A stretch of 54,726 nucleotides of DNA from assembly GCA_030167865.1 (NCBI GenBank), contig JALAGF010001124.1, positions 1 through 54,726 of the forward strand, read 5' to 3'. Positions within the stretch are counted from its first letter, which is position 1; every line of letters begins with the position of its first letter. Shown here one piece after another: positions 5,310 through 17,274 of this stretch. Below the pieces are notes generated by a model. That model was not told the origin of the DNA. It ran no database searches and saw nothing but the letters and a program-made list of their open reading frames with translations. The translations under genes and the position numbers were made by a program. This DNA is from Craspedostauros australis (taxonomy: Eukaryota).

Positions 5310-8300
5310 ATGATCTCCACTAGCGCAGCGACGGCACTGGTGTTTCTGCTGTCCGGTGGACCGGCCGCAGTTGCGGCTGAGAGCGGCAGCAGCAGTTTGA
5401 CGAGCAACGGCCTCATTCGAAGGTGAGAAAGCGACTAGAGATTTATTGCATGTCCCTTCTGCTGTGTTTCGGGCGACGCCCTCTCGGCTCCGCACCGCCC
5501 AGCGACCAACGGTCAAGGAATGCAGCGCGGCGACACCATGGTGTTGTGCGGGTGTGAGCATGGGTGTGTCAGTGCTGCTGCAAGATGTCGGTCACCGGCG
5601 CTCAATGCCGCCAAGGTCACCATCTTGCGCGGTGGGCGAATCGCAGATAATCTCAACGCAGCCATGAGCCAACGCTGCGGAACGGCTTTCCCAGCACGAC
5701 TCACGCGAGCTGCGCCACGACGTTCGCCATTTCTCTCTGGCCACTCGCACACTCCTACATACACACACACACACACAGGCTCTGTTGTCGCTGCTCTGCT
5801 ATTGCTTTCGGTACCCGTTGCCTCCACCACTTGTCGCAACAACCAATCTATGCCACGACGTATTGCAATACCACTCACCGCATCATGCTCCTCTCTCCAC
5901 TCGTCTGCGCGGCGTGATGGGCTGTGCTCACTGATGTGACTATTTGATGTTTCGGTTGCACAGCCTCGCCCAAAACCCAAACGCAGTGCTTGCGGAGCGC
6001 AAGGCCCGCAATTTGGAGGAGATCGCGGCACCTCGCTTCTTGCATGAGGGCAGTGCCTTCCGCCAACTCCGCAGGGCGGCCGAGTCTTCTTCGTTGCAAA
6101 ACCAGGAAAAGGACCAGCTCATGTGCGACCAAGCGTTCACGGGCTGCGTCGACGAGATGGATTGCGTCGAGTGCTTCGTTTCTCTGGATGATTCCGACAT
6201 CGATTGGTCGTCGGTGACGCAGGATACGCCATGCTCGACTGTGGTCAGCGCGCTGACAAATAGCGGCTTCTGCAAGGCCCTCAACAGCAACACCAGGGCG
6301 AACGACGCATTCTGCAAGACCTTCGAGGCTTGCATCATCTTCAACGAGGACGCACACAAGGCTGACGACGACGAATACGTAGACTGCTCCAAGTTGACCT
6401 CCTGCGATTGGCCTGGCTTCCACCCCTCCTTCCTGGGTGATGGCATCTGCCACGACAACATCCATGGCTGTTACAACACGGCGATCTGTAACTGGGATGG
6501 CGGGGATTGCTGCAAGAGCACTTGCAAATCCAAGTCTGACTATGTCGAGTGTGGCCATGACGGATATTTCTGTCGCAACCCAGCAATCGACGACTGCGAC
6601 CCCCTGTTGACGTCGAAGTGCGAGAAGGACAGCGGCAGCTCCGCACAGAAGCCCAGTGACGTTACATGCGACGAGGACGAGATCAAGTACCGCCTCAATA
6701 TGTACGATTCATTCGGCGATGGTTGGGACTCAACCAAGCTCATCATCACAGACGATTCCACAGGGACCGGCAAAGAAGTCTTCAACGGGCAGCTCGTAAC
6801 CGGCGTCCAGGGGACCCAATACATCTGCCTCGCCGCACGGCCCACATGTTACGAGGCTGTCACCAACGGCGGCACGTGGGGAGTTGAAGTATCCTGGGAG
6901 ATCAAGCCGCTTGCTGATGGTTATTCCGCGAGTGAGTCTACACACTTTGCTGCATTTTCTTTGTGTTCCTGTGTCGGCAGCAACGGAAGCGTCATGTAGC
7001 GTGGCGATCTCGAGCGTCCCGTGGTGAAGGCAGGTACTTGATGAATGTCGCCGTCGTCGCCAGTCCGCTCTGCCGTGGAGTCCTATTGCACATTCTGTTG
7101 TTTTCCCTTTCTTTGCTGCAAATGAGACCTCACCATCATGTCGGACGCACGCGCAACATCTAACTCATTGGTTCTCATTGCCGTGCTATGACGCAAACAC
7201 CTCCATCAACGCAAACAAAAACCATGCCACACGTCATTCTTACTTTATCTTATTGTCCCAACCTCAGTCGCGGGAGGTGGAGCACCCATGGATTGCAAGT
7301 TCCCAGTTTCGGGTTCATCTTGTCAACGCACCTGTACAGGCACTCCTCACGGCCAAGACGGCTTCGACCCCACCAAGGACCCTGACTACGAGAGCATGAA
7401 GCAAATGAAGAAGTGCATTGAGGACAGATGCATGATTCAGCTGCGTCATTGCGAGGATGACGACTTGTGCAAGGTGTGCTTCGACGATGACGCACCAAGC
7501 TACTGTTTCAGTCTCCCCCCATTCAAGGCCCTCATCGACTGCGCCCTCTGTGGCTGCACTGAAAGAGAAGGGTCGCAGTACTGTGATTCTCAGGTTGCGC
7601 CTGGCATCCCGGAGCAATCATATGACGAGGACGAAAGCGACGATGGCTACCTGCGTCCATGTAGCGCCTCGGAGACCATCTCGGGTTCGAATGCGGTGAT
7701 CGACTTCAGCAAGTGCACCGACTTTGATGAACTCGCCATGATGGTTTCGGAATTTGACAATCACAACTTCGGACAGCTTGACACCTTTGAAACGTGCGCG
7801 CACTCGTACGCGCAAGGCGACAACCATGGCGGTCGCACTGCGCTGTCCTGCATGGCGGTGCTGAAATCTGCCATCCTGAACCCCACATCAAGTACGAGCA
7901 ATCCAGACGCTCCCAAAGATGCAATTTCGGCGTTGGCCGACAAGCTGTACAACGACGGTGAAAAGTTCTGCAACTGTGCCGCCAAGGCATCGAAGGACTG
8001 CCCGCTGTGCCCATCGTTCATGCAGTTCAAGACGCTCATGTATGAAGCCATCGATGCCTGCCATGCACTGGATGAGATTGATTGCGATGCATGGGAGGAG
8101 GTGAGTACACGAATGCTCTGTTGCAAGCGCAGGATATTGTGCTTGGCACGGACAGAATCGCCGGGTGGGCATTGACGTGTTGACAAGTTGGCACATCGCT
8201 CTTGGAGAAATGGAGTTGTGTTCATGCTATCACTGTCGTATCCCTGGCGTGTGCTCAGAACACGACAACGCTTCCGCTCACTTGCATAGCTCACTCTGTC

Positions 8301-9083
8301 CTCATCCAAACCACCGCAATGCGTGTATCCCCATATCTATGTATTTCTATCTCTCTACTTGATTGATATGCGTGTGGGTGTACCTTGTAAACTCAATGAC
8401 GTGGCTTCGCCGTACAGTTTTATTACCCATGCCAAATGAGACTGAAAGACGTGTATGGCGGCACGGACTTCAAAAAGAAAGATCAGTGCGACTTCGTTGC
8501 AGCCGGGTGTGATGGCGTTGGCGTCTTGCCGGCCTTCCGCCGGATGGATTGCGCTGACAGCATCTCTGATCCTGCCATCGACTTCTACCTTGCGTACGAA
8601 GACGGTTGCTTGGGTGGCAGCGGCGGTGGAGGTGGATTAACTCCCACCAACGCGCCAGATCTCACCACCGCACCGACCCAACGGACCCCACCCGTGGACC
8701 CGACACCCGCACCATCTCCGACATCGGAAGCAACTGAAGAGCCGTACACGCCACCTGAAGATGATGACGATAGCGGCAGCAGCGGCAGTGGATCTGGCAG
8801 CGGAAAGAAGCCGAAGAAGAAGAAGTCTCACTTCTTCCGCAACTTCATCATTCTCTGTCTGCTCGCCGGTGGCGTGTTTGTGTACTACAAGAAGCGCAAC
8901 GGCACCTTCAACTTCGACCTCAACCAGTATCGCCCAACCAGCACGTACGATTACGACGGAGGCATGTCAGGTAGCGAAATGATGTACGGGAATCTGAACA
9001 GCTCCACCAGTTTCCAACCTCCTTCGCTGCCTCCTCCACCCGCAGCCATGGGACCCAACAACCAGCCCATGTCCATGACCTAA
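5310..9083 (+). CDS. Cys-rich type I membrane protein with an LNR (Notch/Lin-12 repeat)-like module, ~859 aa, 4 exons
   Basis: Exons 5310-5422, 5964-6931, 7268-8100, 8418-9083, all GT-AG and phase-consistent (2580 nt). Signal peptide MISTSAATALVFLLSGG, LNR-like GDGICHDNIHGCYNTAICNWDGGDCC, DSFGDGW segment, many Cys clusters, P/T-rich stalk, TM FIILCLLAGGVFVYY, short cytosolic tail. Confidence 0.85.
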
Positions 9084-9773: not shown

Positions 9774-11339
9774 ATGGCGATGATGACAGCTGCCAGAGCC
9801 GCAGCAATGAGCATGATCGAATCCATGGAAAGCTGGGAGGACTTTCTCGAATACGTGGCAATGTACGGCGCCCAGATTGCCTTGGTCACGTGCCTCAGCG
9901 CCGTGGCTGTGTACAGGAGAGAGATGAGCTGCAACCGAGTGTTCCACGAGGAACCCGAGCCTGCAGACGATGATCGCGACGCGGAGGATGAATCGGATCG
10001 AACACGCCAGCATCGTCGTCGCGGGCCAACGCACCTGCACGGGCATCACATATCACTCAGCGATGTGGGCGCGAGCGTGACTGTGCATGGGAAGGACCAG
10101 ATTCTGGATATCCTGAAGTCGTACTGCTCCAGCGCTCCGTTCATCAACTTCGCGCATGCGTGGTTGGAGCGATGGGATCATCTCAACCGTGAGCTGGACC
10201 GCAAAGCGGTGAGCATGGCCCGTGATGAGCGTCATACTCGCACTCATGATGGTGAGGATGGCGGTGGCTTCGTCAGGGCGAACCCATGGGATGATCTGTC
10301 ACCGGAGGAACTTCTCGACAGCGTTGGCAATTACTGCTCTGGCGAGCCGCTCCTCGCAGCAATCTCCTTGCTCTCCTCGTCGAAACGCGTCACCGCCTCC
10401 GCTGCACGACAAGCGCGGCGCAACAATGCGTGCAACAGACCGTGCCCATATTCGCGCAACTTGCCCAATGACGTGCATGGGCACATCGCATCGTTCTTGC
10501 ATCCGAGAGACGTCGTCAACTTGGCGTGCGTGTCGAGGTCGTATTGCAGCATCGTGGACGAAGGGGAAGTGTCCATGGCAATTTGGAGGACGTTGTGGCT
10601 GCGGGACTACGGCTGGATACTCAGCCGATGGGAGGTGGGGCAGCAGGCCGCCGAGCGTTCTGGTGCGTCGCCGGTATTCAGCAAGGCCTTCTACTTCCGC
10701 TTTGGACAGTCGTACATCGACTACGTGCTCGCTGGCCAGAACACGAACGAACGATGTCTGGTGGGTCTGCATTCGAACATCTACGATATCACGCCGTTTT
10801 TGCATTTGCATCCTGGATCCCCCGACACGCTCATGGTGCATGCGGGCAAGGATGCGACTCGTTTCTTTGAGGACATGGGGCACTCCCTCAGCGCGAGACG
10901 GATGGCAAGATCGCTGTGCGTCGTGGTGGATCGATCGGGCGAGCTGCACGAATGCGGGCTTCATCCAACCGTCCGTACAATGCAGCCACTGCAAGAGGCG
11001 CGTGAGAATCGCAGCAACAACACCCACTGCAAGAATATCCACAACGGCGACACCGACAGCGGTGCCGAGGACATCCGATTCCCTCCGCCCGTCGAGGACC
11101 ATCGACTCTGCAAGAATCGCAAAGGACAGAGAACGACAAAGTGTCACGGGACGTTAAGGGAAACTCGCAACGCCATGCAGCGTGAGCATGAAGTCGTCAC
11201 CTGCGCGGTCGAACGAAGGTATGCCGCGGATGCCAGCGTTTTGGGCGACGTTAACGTGTACTACGATCCCTTGGTCCAGAAGTGGCAGGCGTGGTACACA
11301 AACATTTCGCTGGAGACGGTCTTCGTCAAGGACATGTGA
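9774..11339 (+). CDS. F-box plus cytochrome b5-like heme-binding domain protein
   Basis: Intronless 521-aa ORF. F-box-like LPNDVHGHIASFLHPRDVVNLACVSRSY...IWRTLWLRDY. Cyt b5-like CLVGLHSNIYDITPFLHLHPGS...HAGKDATRFFEDMGHSLSARRM. N-terminal hydrophobic segment. Confidence 0.85.
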   Translation: MAMMTAARAAAMSMIESMESWEDFLEYVAMYGAQIALVTCLSAVAVYRREMSCNRVFHEEPEPADDDRDAEDESDRTRQHRRRGPTHLHGHHISLSDVGASVTVHGKDQILDILKSYCSSAPFINFAHAWLERWDHLNRELDRKAVSMARDERHTRTHDGEDGGGFVRANPWDDLSPEELLDSVGNYCSGEPLLAAISLLSSSKRVTASAARQARRNNACNRPCPYSRNLPNDVHGHIASFLHPRDVVNLACVSRSYCSIVDEGEVSMAIWRTLWLRDYGWILSRWEVGQQAAERSGASPVFSKAFYFRFGQSYIDYVLAGQNTNERCLVGLHSNIYDITPFLHLHPGSPDTLMVHAGKDATRFFEDMGHSLSARRMARSLCVVVDRSGELHECGLHPTVRTMQPLQEARENRSNNTHCKNIHNGDTDSGAEDIRFPPPVEDHRLCKNRKGQRTTKCHGTLRETRNAMQREHEVVTCAVERRYAADASVLGDVNVYYDPLVQKWQAWYTNISLETVFVKDM

Positions 11340-11756
11340 AAGCAACAAAGCCGATGATGGTTTCGACGGCGACAAGAGAGGCACAAGGGATACTCGACCA
11401 TACTCGACCATACTCTACTGATACATGAATCGATTTTCTGACAGATGCATGTTTTGTACAATACCATACAGAACTCTACAATACATACATAAAATACTCG
11501 TACGATTGGCACCATAAAAAGCTCCGCAACAGAGTAGGGTAGTCTTCATTGTTATCTCATATTGTACTGATGTCGCGCCTGATAATGCCGTTCTGTTCTC
11601 CAATGTTTGGACCCCAACGGTGGATGAAGAACTCCATCTGTCTGACTTGTCATCAACTTGGTGGCGTTCGGCCTCGTGTTGTCTCTCGCTGTTTGCACTG
11701 CGACCTTCCGAGTATGAATATGACTATTCTAGAGAGTAGAGTACGCCACAACCCCG

Positions 11757-12317
11757 TCACCCAAACAACCCCCAATCTTGCACTCTGAGCGAGTTGGCGA
11801 TACGCTGAGCACCCTCGGAAAGATTCGGTCCTTCCGATGATGGCTCGTTGGGATTTGCGATCGGCGTTGACACAGTGACGAGAAGATCTGTTTCCACGCT
11901 CGCCAGCCGGAAGACCACCAAATCGATCCGCACCCACTTGATCTCCTGCTCGCGCCGGTTGCCAGCGATGTCAACATCGCGTCCCATTGCGATCTTCTGA
12001 AAGCCCAAACCTGCGCAGATCCTGCTCTCGCGTGGCGGCGAGGACAGGGTCAGCGGTATGGCAGTGAAGGTCACGTCGGTGGATCCGTTGGACTCGGCCA
12101 AGTCCTGAAAGAAGAACTTGGATGCCTCGGCATCTCCAACCTCCTGCTTCTCCAGGATTTCAACCACCAGCAACGACCCGTCGATCTCCTGCCAGCATTC
12201 CTGATGATCTGGAACCTGCCGAATGTCCGACACGTCCTTCCATGCTGACGGGATGTCGCAGGATATGGCACCACCGAACAGAGGCCTCGACGCCCATCCT
12301 GCTGCGGCGGTGGCCAT
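11757..12317 (-). CDS. MOG1: Ran guanine nucleotide release factor Mog1
   Basis: RPLFGGAISCDIP...DVSDIRQVPDHQE...SLLVVEILE...FFQDLAESN...VFRLASVETDLLVTV...SLRVQDWGLFG, the typical Mog1 pattern. ATG at 12317. Confidence 0.9.
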   Translation of the reverse strand: MATAAAGWASRPLFGGAISCDIPSAWKDVSDIRQVPDHQECWQEIDGSLLVVEILEKQEVGDAEASKFFFQDLAESNGSTDVTFTAIPLTLSSPPRESRICAGLGFQKIAMGRDVDIAGNRREQEIKWVRIDLVVFRLASVETDLLVTVSTPIANPNEPSSEGPNLSEGAQRIANSLRVQDWGLFG

Positions 12318-12453
12318 GATCGTCAAGGCAGGCCTTGCCTAAGATGATGGTGAGAGTGCCTCGGGGGATGGCAGCTGCGCTGGTGCTGGCGCTGGTGCCG
12401 ACGGATTGTGGGAGATGAAGTGTGGCTGGACGATGGTGCGATGTGCAGCTGCA

Positions 12454-15964: not shown

Positions 15965-16774
15965 TCAGCCCTCCATTGCCTTGTTTTCGTCGTCGTTTTG
16001 TGCTGCTTTGGGTACTGCCGCTGTTGCGGCGACTGCGTCCGTTACTTCTTCCTCCAATTCTGAGGCAATTGGCTTGGCGTCGAGTTCCACTTGGTCGGTG
16101 ACGGAAGGTGACCAATGACGAACATGCTCATTAGATGTGACCGGAATTTGGACGGACTTGAATGGTTGCTTGATCAGCCGGTCGGCCTTCAGCACAAGAA
16201 CCCCGTCGTTGAGGTTGGCTGTGATCGTGGCAGGATCCACATCGTCCAGGTCGACGGAATACTTCATCTTGCGTGTCTTGCTGGCCGCTGCGCCGCAGGT
16301 CTCGTCATTCGTTCCGGCGGATGAGAAGGGCTTTCGCACAGCCTCGATCATCACGCAATCGGACATGATCGTGACAGTGACATCGTCTGCGCGAACGCCT
16401 GGGAGGTCGAAGCTGACGAAGGCCTTACCGTTGCCTTCGTCAACGAATGACGATGGCGAACAGGAAGGCGTTGCCGCAACACGGCAACCAACGCGCGGGC
16501 GTCTTCCGTGATGGAACATCTTGTGGAAAAGCAGGCGGGAGATCATATCTGATTCGTCCCTCGCGTGCTTTCGAGATGCATGGCATGAAGCAAAGTGGGC
16601 ACCGCTGCTGCTGCCGCTGCTCACGTTGGCGCCAGCACCAGCGCCGGCACCAGCACCAGTATCTGCGGGAGATGCTGGCTTATCGGAATCACCGTCAAAC
16701 CAACTCGGGTGGTACCAGATATCGTCGATCTTGTACGGTTGCGCGGAACTGTGGTAGAACATTGTCTTGATCAT
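15965..16774 (-). CDS. Small heat-shock protein (HSP20/alpha-crystallin domain)
   Basis: FVSFDLPGVRADDVTVTI...VDPATITANLNDGVLVLKA followed by an IxI-like VQIPV motif. Confidence 0.88.
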   Translation of the reverse strand: MIKTMFYHSSAQPYKIDDIWYHPSWFDGDSDKPASPADTGAGAGAGAGANVSSGSSSGAHFASCHASRKHARDESDMISRLLFHKMFHHGRRPRVGCRVAATPSCSPSSFVDEGNGKAFVSFDLPGVRADDVTVTIMSDCVMIEAVRKPFSSAGTNDETCGAAASKTRKMKYSVDLDDVDPATITANLNDGVLVLKADRLIKQPFKSVQIPVTSNEHVRHWSPSVTDQVELDAKPIASELEEEVTDAVAATAAVPKAAQNDDENKAMEG

Positions 16775-17274
16775 GATGGAATGAGCTTTCGTTTCGAAGA
16801 TGTTATAGTTGCTGTTGTTGTTGACGCGTAGTGCTTGGGCGTGGCTTTTTAGAAGAAGCTTGTGTGATATATGAGAAGTGGAAGATGATGAGCACGAAGA
16901 TGGAGGTAGGTAGTGCGGATGTTGCGCATGAAGAGGTCGGAGGTGCTTCTCAGGGGAACGAGCTTCCTTTGTTTCAAGTCACCGATTCCATTCGATTCCA
17001 AAAGAAGTCCACCGAACTTTCGATGAACATCCTGGGCATTTTCAATCCCGTGATCGACCGATTCGAATCAAATCACGAATTGAAAGTGACTATTAATATA
17101 GTTTTATTAAATCCACCGCAACACCAACAATGTAGAGTGTCCGATTTCCCCACTTCCACAGATGTCACGATCCTTGATGTTCATGACAGATGATGTGCAA
17201 CAAAAATGAGATCTCTGCGTTGTCCACGACATTCCGATCACTCTCGCCAAACCACATCTGCTTCCTGGCCTCCA

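Follow-up and report, generated by a model that had tools for sequence, protein, structure and literature searches.

A membrane-anchored F-box/cytochrome b5 protein of Craspedostauros australis and its conserved ochrophyte family: a possible heme-gated SCF substrate receptor

Introduction

Can the substrate receptor of a ubiquitin ligase carry its own heme switch? This question is raised by a gene on contig JALAGF010001124.1 of Craspedostauros australis (assembly GCA_030167865.1), of which the whole stretch of 54,726 nucleotides that was analysed is called the window here. The gene encodes a protein of 521 amino acids (aa) that joins a hydrophobic N-terminal segment, an F-box and a cytochrome b5 domain, and a reading made from the letters alone (the sequence-only reading) had proposed that it is a heme-, iron- or redox-sensing adaptor of an SCF (SKP1-cullin-F-box) ligase built independently in algae. 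Our searches and structure predictions suggest that the protein is, in all likelihood, a membrane-anchored, SKP1-binding SCF substrate receptor with a bis-histidine heme, located probably in the endoplasmic reticulum (ER). It is a real variant among SCF substrate receptors, conserved and without a description in the literature searched, and a heme switch in it is plausible.

Iron is limiting for diatoms in large parts of the ocean, and little is known about the way in which their protein turnover responds to heme or iron. Through the protein described here, degradation may be coupled to the supply of heme or to the redox state. In that case the protein would be one possible means by which diatoms sense their heme or iron status and, its folded heme pocket being part of the receptor, would add a third solution to the two hemerythrin ligases, FBXL5 and BRUTUS. 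Even if nothing is sensed, a membrane-anchored F-box protein that has both a b5 domain and a C-terminal module of no known class is an architecture new to the literature searched. The question comes down to one concrete gene, of which the model diatom Thalassiosira pseudonana has an orthologue (XP_002290032.1); the histidine pair and the F-box can be mutated separately, so that the question is directly testable.

Results

The F-box/cytochrome b5 fusion is one conserved family

In Pfam scans of the C. australis protein, F-box-like (PF12937; E 5e-7, 29.8 bits against a cut-off of 24.3), F-box (PF00646; E 2.9e-6, 27.4 bits, cut-off 20.5) and Cyt-b5 (PF00173, aa 321-383; E 2e-14, 53.8 bits, cut-off 23.7) all matched, and both domains named in the sequence-only reading thus lie above the Pfam cut-offs. 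A search with aa 222-400 returned 120 homologues among 237 candidates, a profile built from 57 homologues returned 261 cluster representatives at E<=1e-30 (the best 150 of the 261 were inspected), and a further profile built from 24 distant members added few more. Of the 256 proteins examined, 230 include the F-box together with the two histidine regions, in the same domain order; the remaining 26 are mostly fragments or cut gene calls and include one unrelated multi-b5 protein. Eleven shorter homologues stop just after the HPG motif and, most likely, represent gene models truncated at an intron. Searches for shorter forms gave 5 matches among 1264 candidates, all of them fragments of this family, and the only long match in the profile search was the unrelated multi-b5 protein P0226, no word search having been aimed at longer forms. 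The ESM Atlas contributed one Cyt-b5 cluster, below 0.9, and narrow pattern scans of viral contigs and prokaryote genomes found no relative. PF00173 is present in all 57 members scanned and PF12937 (E<=0.01) in 49 of the 57 alignment members, distant members, including those of T. pseudonana and S. robusta, often falling below the Pfam F-box cut-off. Conservation of the F-box is close to that of the b5 domain (mean share of the top residue 0.60 and 0.67). The F-box/b5 fusion is one conserved family and not a product of chance. P0226 itself is a membrane-anchored protein of 1252 aa with approximately eleven tandem b5-like repeats.

The named homologues come from Nitzschia, Cylindrotheca, Amphora, Attheya and a 'Psemu1' gene model, which we take to be Pseudo-nitzschia, all of them diatoms. 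For 7 of 30 homologues an organism was found: Coscinodiscus, T. pseudonana, Corethron, Seminavis, Proboscia, Stauroneis (Stauroneis constricta) and the brown alga Cladosiphon okamuranus. The Cladosiphon protein (P0279) matches the profile over F-box, linker and b5 domain with a probability of 99.9 and has both Pfam domains above cut-off. An 'Alexandrium' member is likely a contamination, the same sequence being filed as T. pseudonana. The gene is thus algal, as had been proposed, and among the named members its architecture spans radial centric diatoms to raphid pennates and one brown alga. Given its presence in diatoms and Cladosiphon, the fusion probably arose no later than the divergence of diatoms from brown algae, barring a transfer, a dating that hangs on one named non-diatom sequence. 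In a FastTree tree (146 sequences, 186 columns; rooted on Cladosiphon by choice), the C. australis protein stands beside Stauroneis (0.91), and a separate clade of 24 proteins with support 1.0, which includes Corethron and Seminavis, forms subfamily B.

In searches of the C. australis genome, in which all counts are lower bounds, the gene was found in one copy and no subfamily B copy was found. The contig discussed here (C1124) is the sole one common to the 26 Cyt-b5 and the 15 F-box-like matches.

The F-box is predicted to bind SKP1

The sequence-only reading had named an F-box-like motif; profile, fold, conservation and predicted docking to SKP1 now mark it as genuine. In a fold search with the model, the F-box matched FBH1 (9xzj; Z-score 5.8, root-mean-square deviation (rmsd) 1.7 over 40 residues), FBXL17 (6w66; Z 5.5, rmsd 1.8 over 40) and, over aa 223-312, Cdc4 (1nex; Z 5.2, rmsd 2.8 over 74), and cyclin F was also returned. 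The low rmsd and the position of these matches in the model agree with Pfam. By sequence, the only PDB match to the F-box region is human FBXO4, which is of the SKP1-bound type, and this match is weak (E 0.82); it extends into the LWR..RD segment behind the F-box, but the similarity covers approximately 58 residues and does not make FBXO4 an orthologue. The positions that contact SKP1 (230, 238, 241, 242 and 250) are hydrophobic in 99-100% of the 230 proteins, and P231 is kept in 195 of 229.

Sequence searches identified SKP1 and cullin genes in the C. australis genome. Because its SKP1 gene has introns, a diatom-type SKP1 from a metagenome contig served as stand-in, and 38 of the 39 interface residues are identical between the two. 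The complex predicted for aa 222-521 with this SKP1 scored 0.83 in three runs and the best of three controls 0.04, a result in line with the proposed adaptor role that may reflect likeness to solved pairs. Contacts agreed in at least 86% between runs, the predicted local distance difference test score (pLDDT) of the partner was at least 84, and R277 and F308 of the linker join the F-box in the predicted interface. In calibrating the mark applied to such predictions, 51 of 78 solved microbial pairs passed, as did 2 of 108 mismatched ones; among eukaryotic pairs, 71 of 105 solved ones passed (including 39 of the 65 that have no like complex), together with 2 of 126 unrelated ones.

Besides the canonical SKP1 gene on contig C585, at least three more SKP1-like matches (L005, L007 and L008, on C4821 and C5615) were observed, two of them in tandem on C5615.

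The cytochrome b5 domain has an intact heme pocket and is continuous with the linker

Both axial histidines noted in the sequence-only reading, H346 in HPGS (10809-10811) and H370 in EDMGHS (10881-10883), align with the ligand histidines of solved b5 proteins (2ibj, 1lj0 and 3mus), and the pocket is intact across the family. Six residues never vary among the 230 proteins with both domains covered (H346, P347, G348, G358, H370 and A374), and the heme-pocket positions are conserved accordingly (F342 99%, F365 99%, G358 100%, A374 100%). Site by site, all 239 proteins that cover position 370 have H370, and 254 of the 255 that cover position 346 have H346, the lone exception being the unrelated multi-b5 protein; the searches favour proteins with conserved words, and a full-length profile would still score members without the histidines highly. 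As judged from the alignment, two candidate heme ligands stand at b5 spacing, and the domain presumably binds heme.

The top Foldseek matches of the AlphaFold2 model are all cytochromes b5, among them rat outer-membrane b5 (1awp; rmsd 1.3 Å over 65 columns, 45% identity). The domain shares its fold and both axial histidines with microsomal and outer-membrane b5, but differs from them by HPGS in place of HPGG (in 85% of the family), a near-neutral core, an N-terminal instead of a tail anchor and a linker in place of the first strand and helix. The net charge of the core is -1.1 +/- 1.75 in the family (n=229) and 0 in the C. australis protein versus -7 in the microsomal b5 of the same genome. 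Traits of microsomal b5 that are missing include the HPGG turn, the acidic heme-edge surface and, in 184 of 185 proteins, a hydrophobic C-terminal window.

The linker is likewise conserved (W271 100%, R277 99%, Y307 99%, F308 95%, A320 97%). The AlphaFold2 model has pLDDT values of 89-97 over aa 231-410, with linker blocks at 94-97, and of 95-98 over aa 461-520. Since the linker helix at aa 304-319 replaces the first b5 strand and helix, F-box and b5 domain seem to form one continuous block, as judged from model confidence and secondary structure.

Two cysteines in the b5 sheet, C328 (10755-10757; conserved in 96%) and C382 (10917-10919; 91%), are a candidate redox pair. Elsewhere in the genome, contig C4961 has five Cyt-b5 matches in separate long open reading frames, which suggests a tandem gene array.

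Membrane anchor, repeated motif and C-terminal module

The hydrophobic N-terminal segment of the sequence-only reading could be located to the best 19-residue window of the protein. In subfamily A, 173 of 185 proteins whose N-terminus is long enough have a window with a mean Kyte-Doolittle value of at least 1.3 in the N-terminal part, and 1 of 185 has one in the C-terminal part; for subfamily B the counts are 15 of 18 and 0 of 18. Lysine plus arginine residues average 2.6 on the C side of the helix versus 0.27 on the N side (n=160) and by the positive-inside rule the F-box and the heme therefore face the cytosol. The membrane is probably that of the ER.

This topology was absent from the sequence-only reading, as were a repeated motif and the C-terminal module. 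The repeated motif (family consensus LLxGAGxYCSGxP) sits between anchor and F-box; its pattern occurs once in 54 and twice in 33 proteins (87 of 230) and in none of 1150 shuffles, and the region that contains it is missing in subfamily B.

The C-terminal module is predicted to combine a single helix with a sheet of three strands, contains aromatic residues that hardly vary (W504 96%, W507 99%, Y508 94%; D498 98%) and folds alone in prediction (mean pLDDT 85.6). In fold searches with aa 444-521 the best VIA match had a Z-score of 4.2 and Foldseek gave no match at E<=0.001; these model-based searches show neither a new nor a known fold. WW and OCRE are candidate fold leads, and in the profile scan of one member OCRE appeared below cut-off (E 0.19). 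None of the 57 members scanned has a hemerythrin, leucine-rich repeat (LRR), WD40, catalytic redox (reductase or oxidase) or other enzyme domain, and in 20 of 20 distant members neither WD40 nor LRRs follow the F-box, which sets the family apart from FBXW and FBXL proteins.

By eye, a CxxC...C/H...CC pattern, possibly a zinc site, was seen in the C-terminal module of Cladosiphon P0279 and in the fragments P0280 and P0281; the diatom alignments are without it.

Discussion

A model for heme-gated degradation

Combining these results, we suggest a model in which (i) a single N-terminal helix would hold the receptor in the membrane, with the remainder of the protein in the cytosol, (ii) the F-box would bind SKP1 and presumably enter a cullin assembly, (iii) the linker would hold the bis-histidine b-type heme domain and the aromatic C-terminal module in the position that WD40 repeats or LRRs have in other F-box proteins, and (iv) the heme would act as a gate, its loading or oxidation state setting receptor stability or target binding, so that degradation would follow heme supply or redox state. 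In apo-b5 the heme-binding helices lose order; heme supply during folding could therefore set the stability or the surface of the receptor, in a manner comparable to FBXL5. The family lacks a catalytic redox domain in cis and an acidic core, which speaks for regulation more than for the role of a classical donor. Heme gating of an SCF receptor is in our view the best explanation overall, and we advance it tentatively. A more far-reaching version, which is possible and which we hold with greater reserve, is that the protein is part of an ochrophyte cofactor-gated ubiquitin ligase in which the receptor's own b5 heme switches the degradation of heme-, iron- or lipid-redox-related proteins.

Several observations weigh against this model. 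Six-coordinate heme in b5 proteins is as a rule firmly bound and takes up no gas, and would therefore be equally suited to a structural or electron-carrier role. Neither a substrate nor iron- or heme-dependent expression was found for the F-box/b5 protein. The Z-scores of the F-box fold matches (5.2-5.8) are middling and tie with unrelated helical rows, and position 257, which is aromatic in many F-boxes, is variable (Y in 60 of 230). The SKP1 prediction was made without alignments, with a pLDDT of 56-57 for chain 1 and with the stand-in SKP1; the heme included in it lies outside the calibration and is unscored. Moreover, F-box and SKP1 are a textbook pair, and passing the mark therefore means likeness to solved complexes, not binding. 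Four of nine other b5 cores of the genome also have charges of 0 to +3, so that charge argues only against a classical microsomal donor. Finally, PMC12022348 states that BRUTUS homologues, which are iron-sensing ligases, respond to iron in diatoms, and the niche may therefore not be empty. In the source cited for diatom BRUTUS, PMC10372677, the main text is without 'BTS', 'BRUTUS' and 'hemerythrin'. In the C. australis genome, 2 of 5 scored candidates contain hemerythrin, at a lower bound, and neither is BRUTUS-like by eye.

These two loci are of some interest in themselves. One (L092; C4359:17725-18036, minus strand) encodes a stand-alone hemerythrin-like domain protein (E 1.5e-6). The other (L093; C4801, minus strand, with the match at 58997-59413) is a long open reading frame with many hydrophobic segments and a C-terminal hemerythrin-like domain (PF01814, E 8.8e-4), which we take to resemble a TDT/SLAC1-type anion channel and which is possibly an iron- or oxygen-gated transporter.

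Alternative explanations

A docking or electron-carrier role of the b5 domain fits the same data as heme, iron or redox sensing, and heme gating and the first three alternatives considered here fit the results alike. The first is that the b5 domain, loaded with heme, serves an SCF receptor as a permanent docking surface, with a structural heme that senses nothing; mimicking the cytochrome b5 that is bound by ER enzymes (desaturases, cytochromes P450, sterol enzymes and b5 reductase), it would select these enzymes for degradation. The F-box and the predicted SKP1 binding support this alternative as they do heme gating. It also accords with an anchor that leaves the C-terminus in the cytosol, with a b5 domain closest to microsomal and outer-membrane b5 and with the place of this domain directly behind the F-box linker, the usual site of substrate-binding domains (compare the Cdc4 match over aa 223-312); the b5-like proteins PGRMC1/Dap1 are reported to modulate cytochromes P450. 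However, the surface recognised by b5 partners is the acidic patch, and this patch is largely lost (net charge approximately -1 versus -7), with V, L or A at position 355 and basic residues at 375-376. We regard such a docking role as unlikely, if still a serious contender.

Alternatively, the heme may be a working electron carrier at the membrane that exchanges electrons, in either direction, with a bound enzyme or substrate, the F-box tethering SKP1 or controlling the protein's own turnover. Every heme-pocket position is conserved, the fused or atypical b5 domains of the same genome also have neutral cores, and in the b5-like regulator RLF the heme ligands are essential (PMC12177306). Yet all 57 members are without a reductase or oxidase domain in cis, and a mere tag for self-turnover would not obviously need an F-box about as conserved as the b5 domain; an electron carrier of this kind is distinctly unlikely.

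SKP1 might also be bound without an active cullin ligase, in a non-SCF complex or as a SKP1 sink, or the F-box-like helices might be mere scaffold. The protein has no recognised substrate-binding domain, many distant members fall below the Pfam F-box cut-off, and the linker fuses F-box and b5 domain into one high-confidence block. This is improbable in view of the SKP1-contact residues, hydrophobic in 99-100% of 230 proteins, of P231 (195 of 229) and of a predicted interface confined to the F-box, R277 and F308. An artefact, the chance joining of adjacent genes or a degenerating b5 domain without heme is largely refuted and hardly conceivable, the frame being open, the domain order the same in 230 of 256 proteins with invariant histidines, and members being derived from transcripts.

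Relation to known systems

Heme gating, if it applies, has its best functional analogue in FBXL5, a soluble animal SCF receptor with an N-terminal hemerythrin-like domain and LRRs. Both join an F-box to a metal-cofactor domain, but in the algal protein a b5 heme stands behind the F-box together with a membrane anchor, without hemerythrin or LRRs, and the two are not homologous outside the F-box. As described in PMC12022348, iron binding to the di-iron hemerythrin-like domain of FBXL5 stabilises the receptor. That the algal protein was built independently of FBXL5, as had been supposed, is borne out by the absence of hemerythrin and LRRs from 57 of 57 members. BRUTUS/HRZ proteins are RING ligases without F-box or heme. 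Like the algal protein, they occur in photosynthetic organisms and combine a cofactor-binding domain with a module of a ubiquitin ligase; in contrast, the module here is an F-box and the cofactor heme, and the Pfam scan met no hemerythrin-plus-RING architecture. In plants and green algae they carry three hemerythrin-like domains in 1200-1400 aa (PMC12022348).

HERC2 is the only ubiquitin ligase with a Cyt-b5 domain found in the literature searched. In contrast to the algal protein it is a giant animal HECT ligase without F-box or membrane anchor, and its b5-like domain is not known to keep both histidines. Its description as a HECT ligase with a Cyt-b5-like domain is taken from PMC3673628 and PMC8044464. 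Control of cullin-RING ligase targeting by heme has a parallel in BACH1 degradation (SCF-FBXO22, SCF-FBXL17 and CUL2-FEM1B); in that case the heme is bound by the substrate or acts as a glue in the complex, whereas here a folded bis-histidine pocket lies in the receptor. The study 10.64898/2026.05.07.723605 reports that heme triggers BACH1 degradation by CUL2-FEM1B. Regulatory b5-like domains have been described in CYB5D1, which acts as a redox switch (PMC13505981), and in RLF (PMC12177306).

As the sequence-only reading had surmised, no description of an F-box/b5 protein was found in the literature searched, which was judged mainly by titles and the beginnings of abstracts and excluded supplements; member accession numbers and phrases for membrane-anchored F-box proteins likewise gave no literature match. 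The gene may figure in diatom iron transcriptome tables, and the combination of the two domains is already present in databases, in the JGI name of one homologue.

Gene structure and genomic surroundings

The gene is a single frame from an ATG at 9774 to a stop at 11337-11339 (Table 1), and the start is ambiguous, any of M1-M18 being possible. The sequence-only reading had called it intronless. End-to-end alignment with transcript-derived homologues supports this for the frame as a whole; in the poorly conserved stretches around aa 60-105, 135-170 and 400-440 an in-frame intron is possible. A presumed RNA run gave low-depth contigs over 11135-11456 and none over most of the frame, and was not used as evidence.

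Table 1. Features of the F-box/cytochrome b5 gene in window coordinates
Feature	Position	Strand	Basis
Membrane-anchored F-box/cytochrome b5 protein gene (P0001), 521 aa	9774..11339	+	Open reading frame and Pfam
Predicted single transmembrane helix, aa 28-46	9855..9911	+	Kyte-Doolittle mean 1.87
Basic motif YRRExSCN after the membrane helix, aa 47-54	9912..9935	+	Motif in 169 of 230 proteins
First, degenerate copy of repeated motif, aa 108-122	10095..10139	+	Alignment; the strict pattern misses this copy
Second copy of repeated motif, aa 178-192	10305..10349	+	Pattern match at aa 180 and alignment
F-box domain, aa 229-263	10458..10562	+	Pfam; fold matches; predicted SKP1 interface aa 224-258
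Conserved helical linker into first b5 helix, aa 264-320 (W271, R277-D278, KxFYFxF, AGxN)	10563..10733	+	
Cytochrome b5 heme-binding domain, aa 321-386	10734..10931	+	Pfam, alignment, fold, conservation
C-terminal module, aa 461-518, YDPx4WxxWY; candidate substrate-binding part	11154..11327	+	Conservation, model

Upstream, at 5935-9083 (+) of the window, lies a multi-exon gene for a cysteine-rich protein with a C-terminal membrane helix and, by eye, a stretch resembling an LNR/Notch repeat; its three open reading frames gave no Pfam match. Downstream, two genes unrelated to the F-box gene were observed: a gene for a Mog1 Ran-binding protein (11757-12335, minus strand; PF04603, E 4e-30), which is convergent with the F-box gene, and one for an HSP20 family protein (15965-16978, minus strand; E 5.6e-11).
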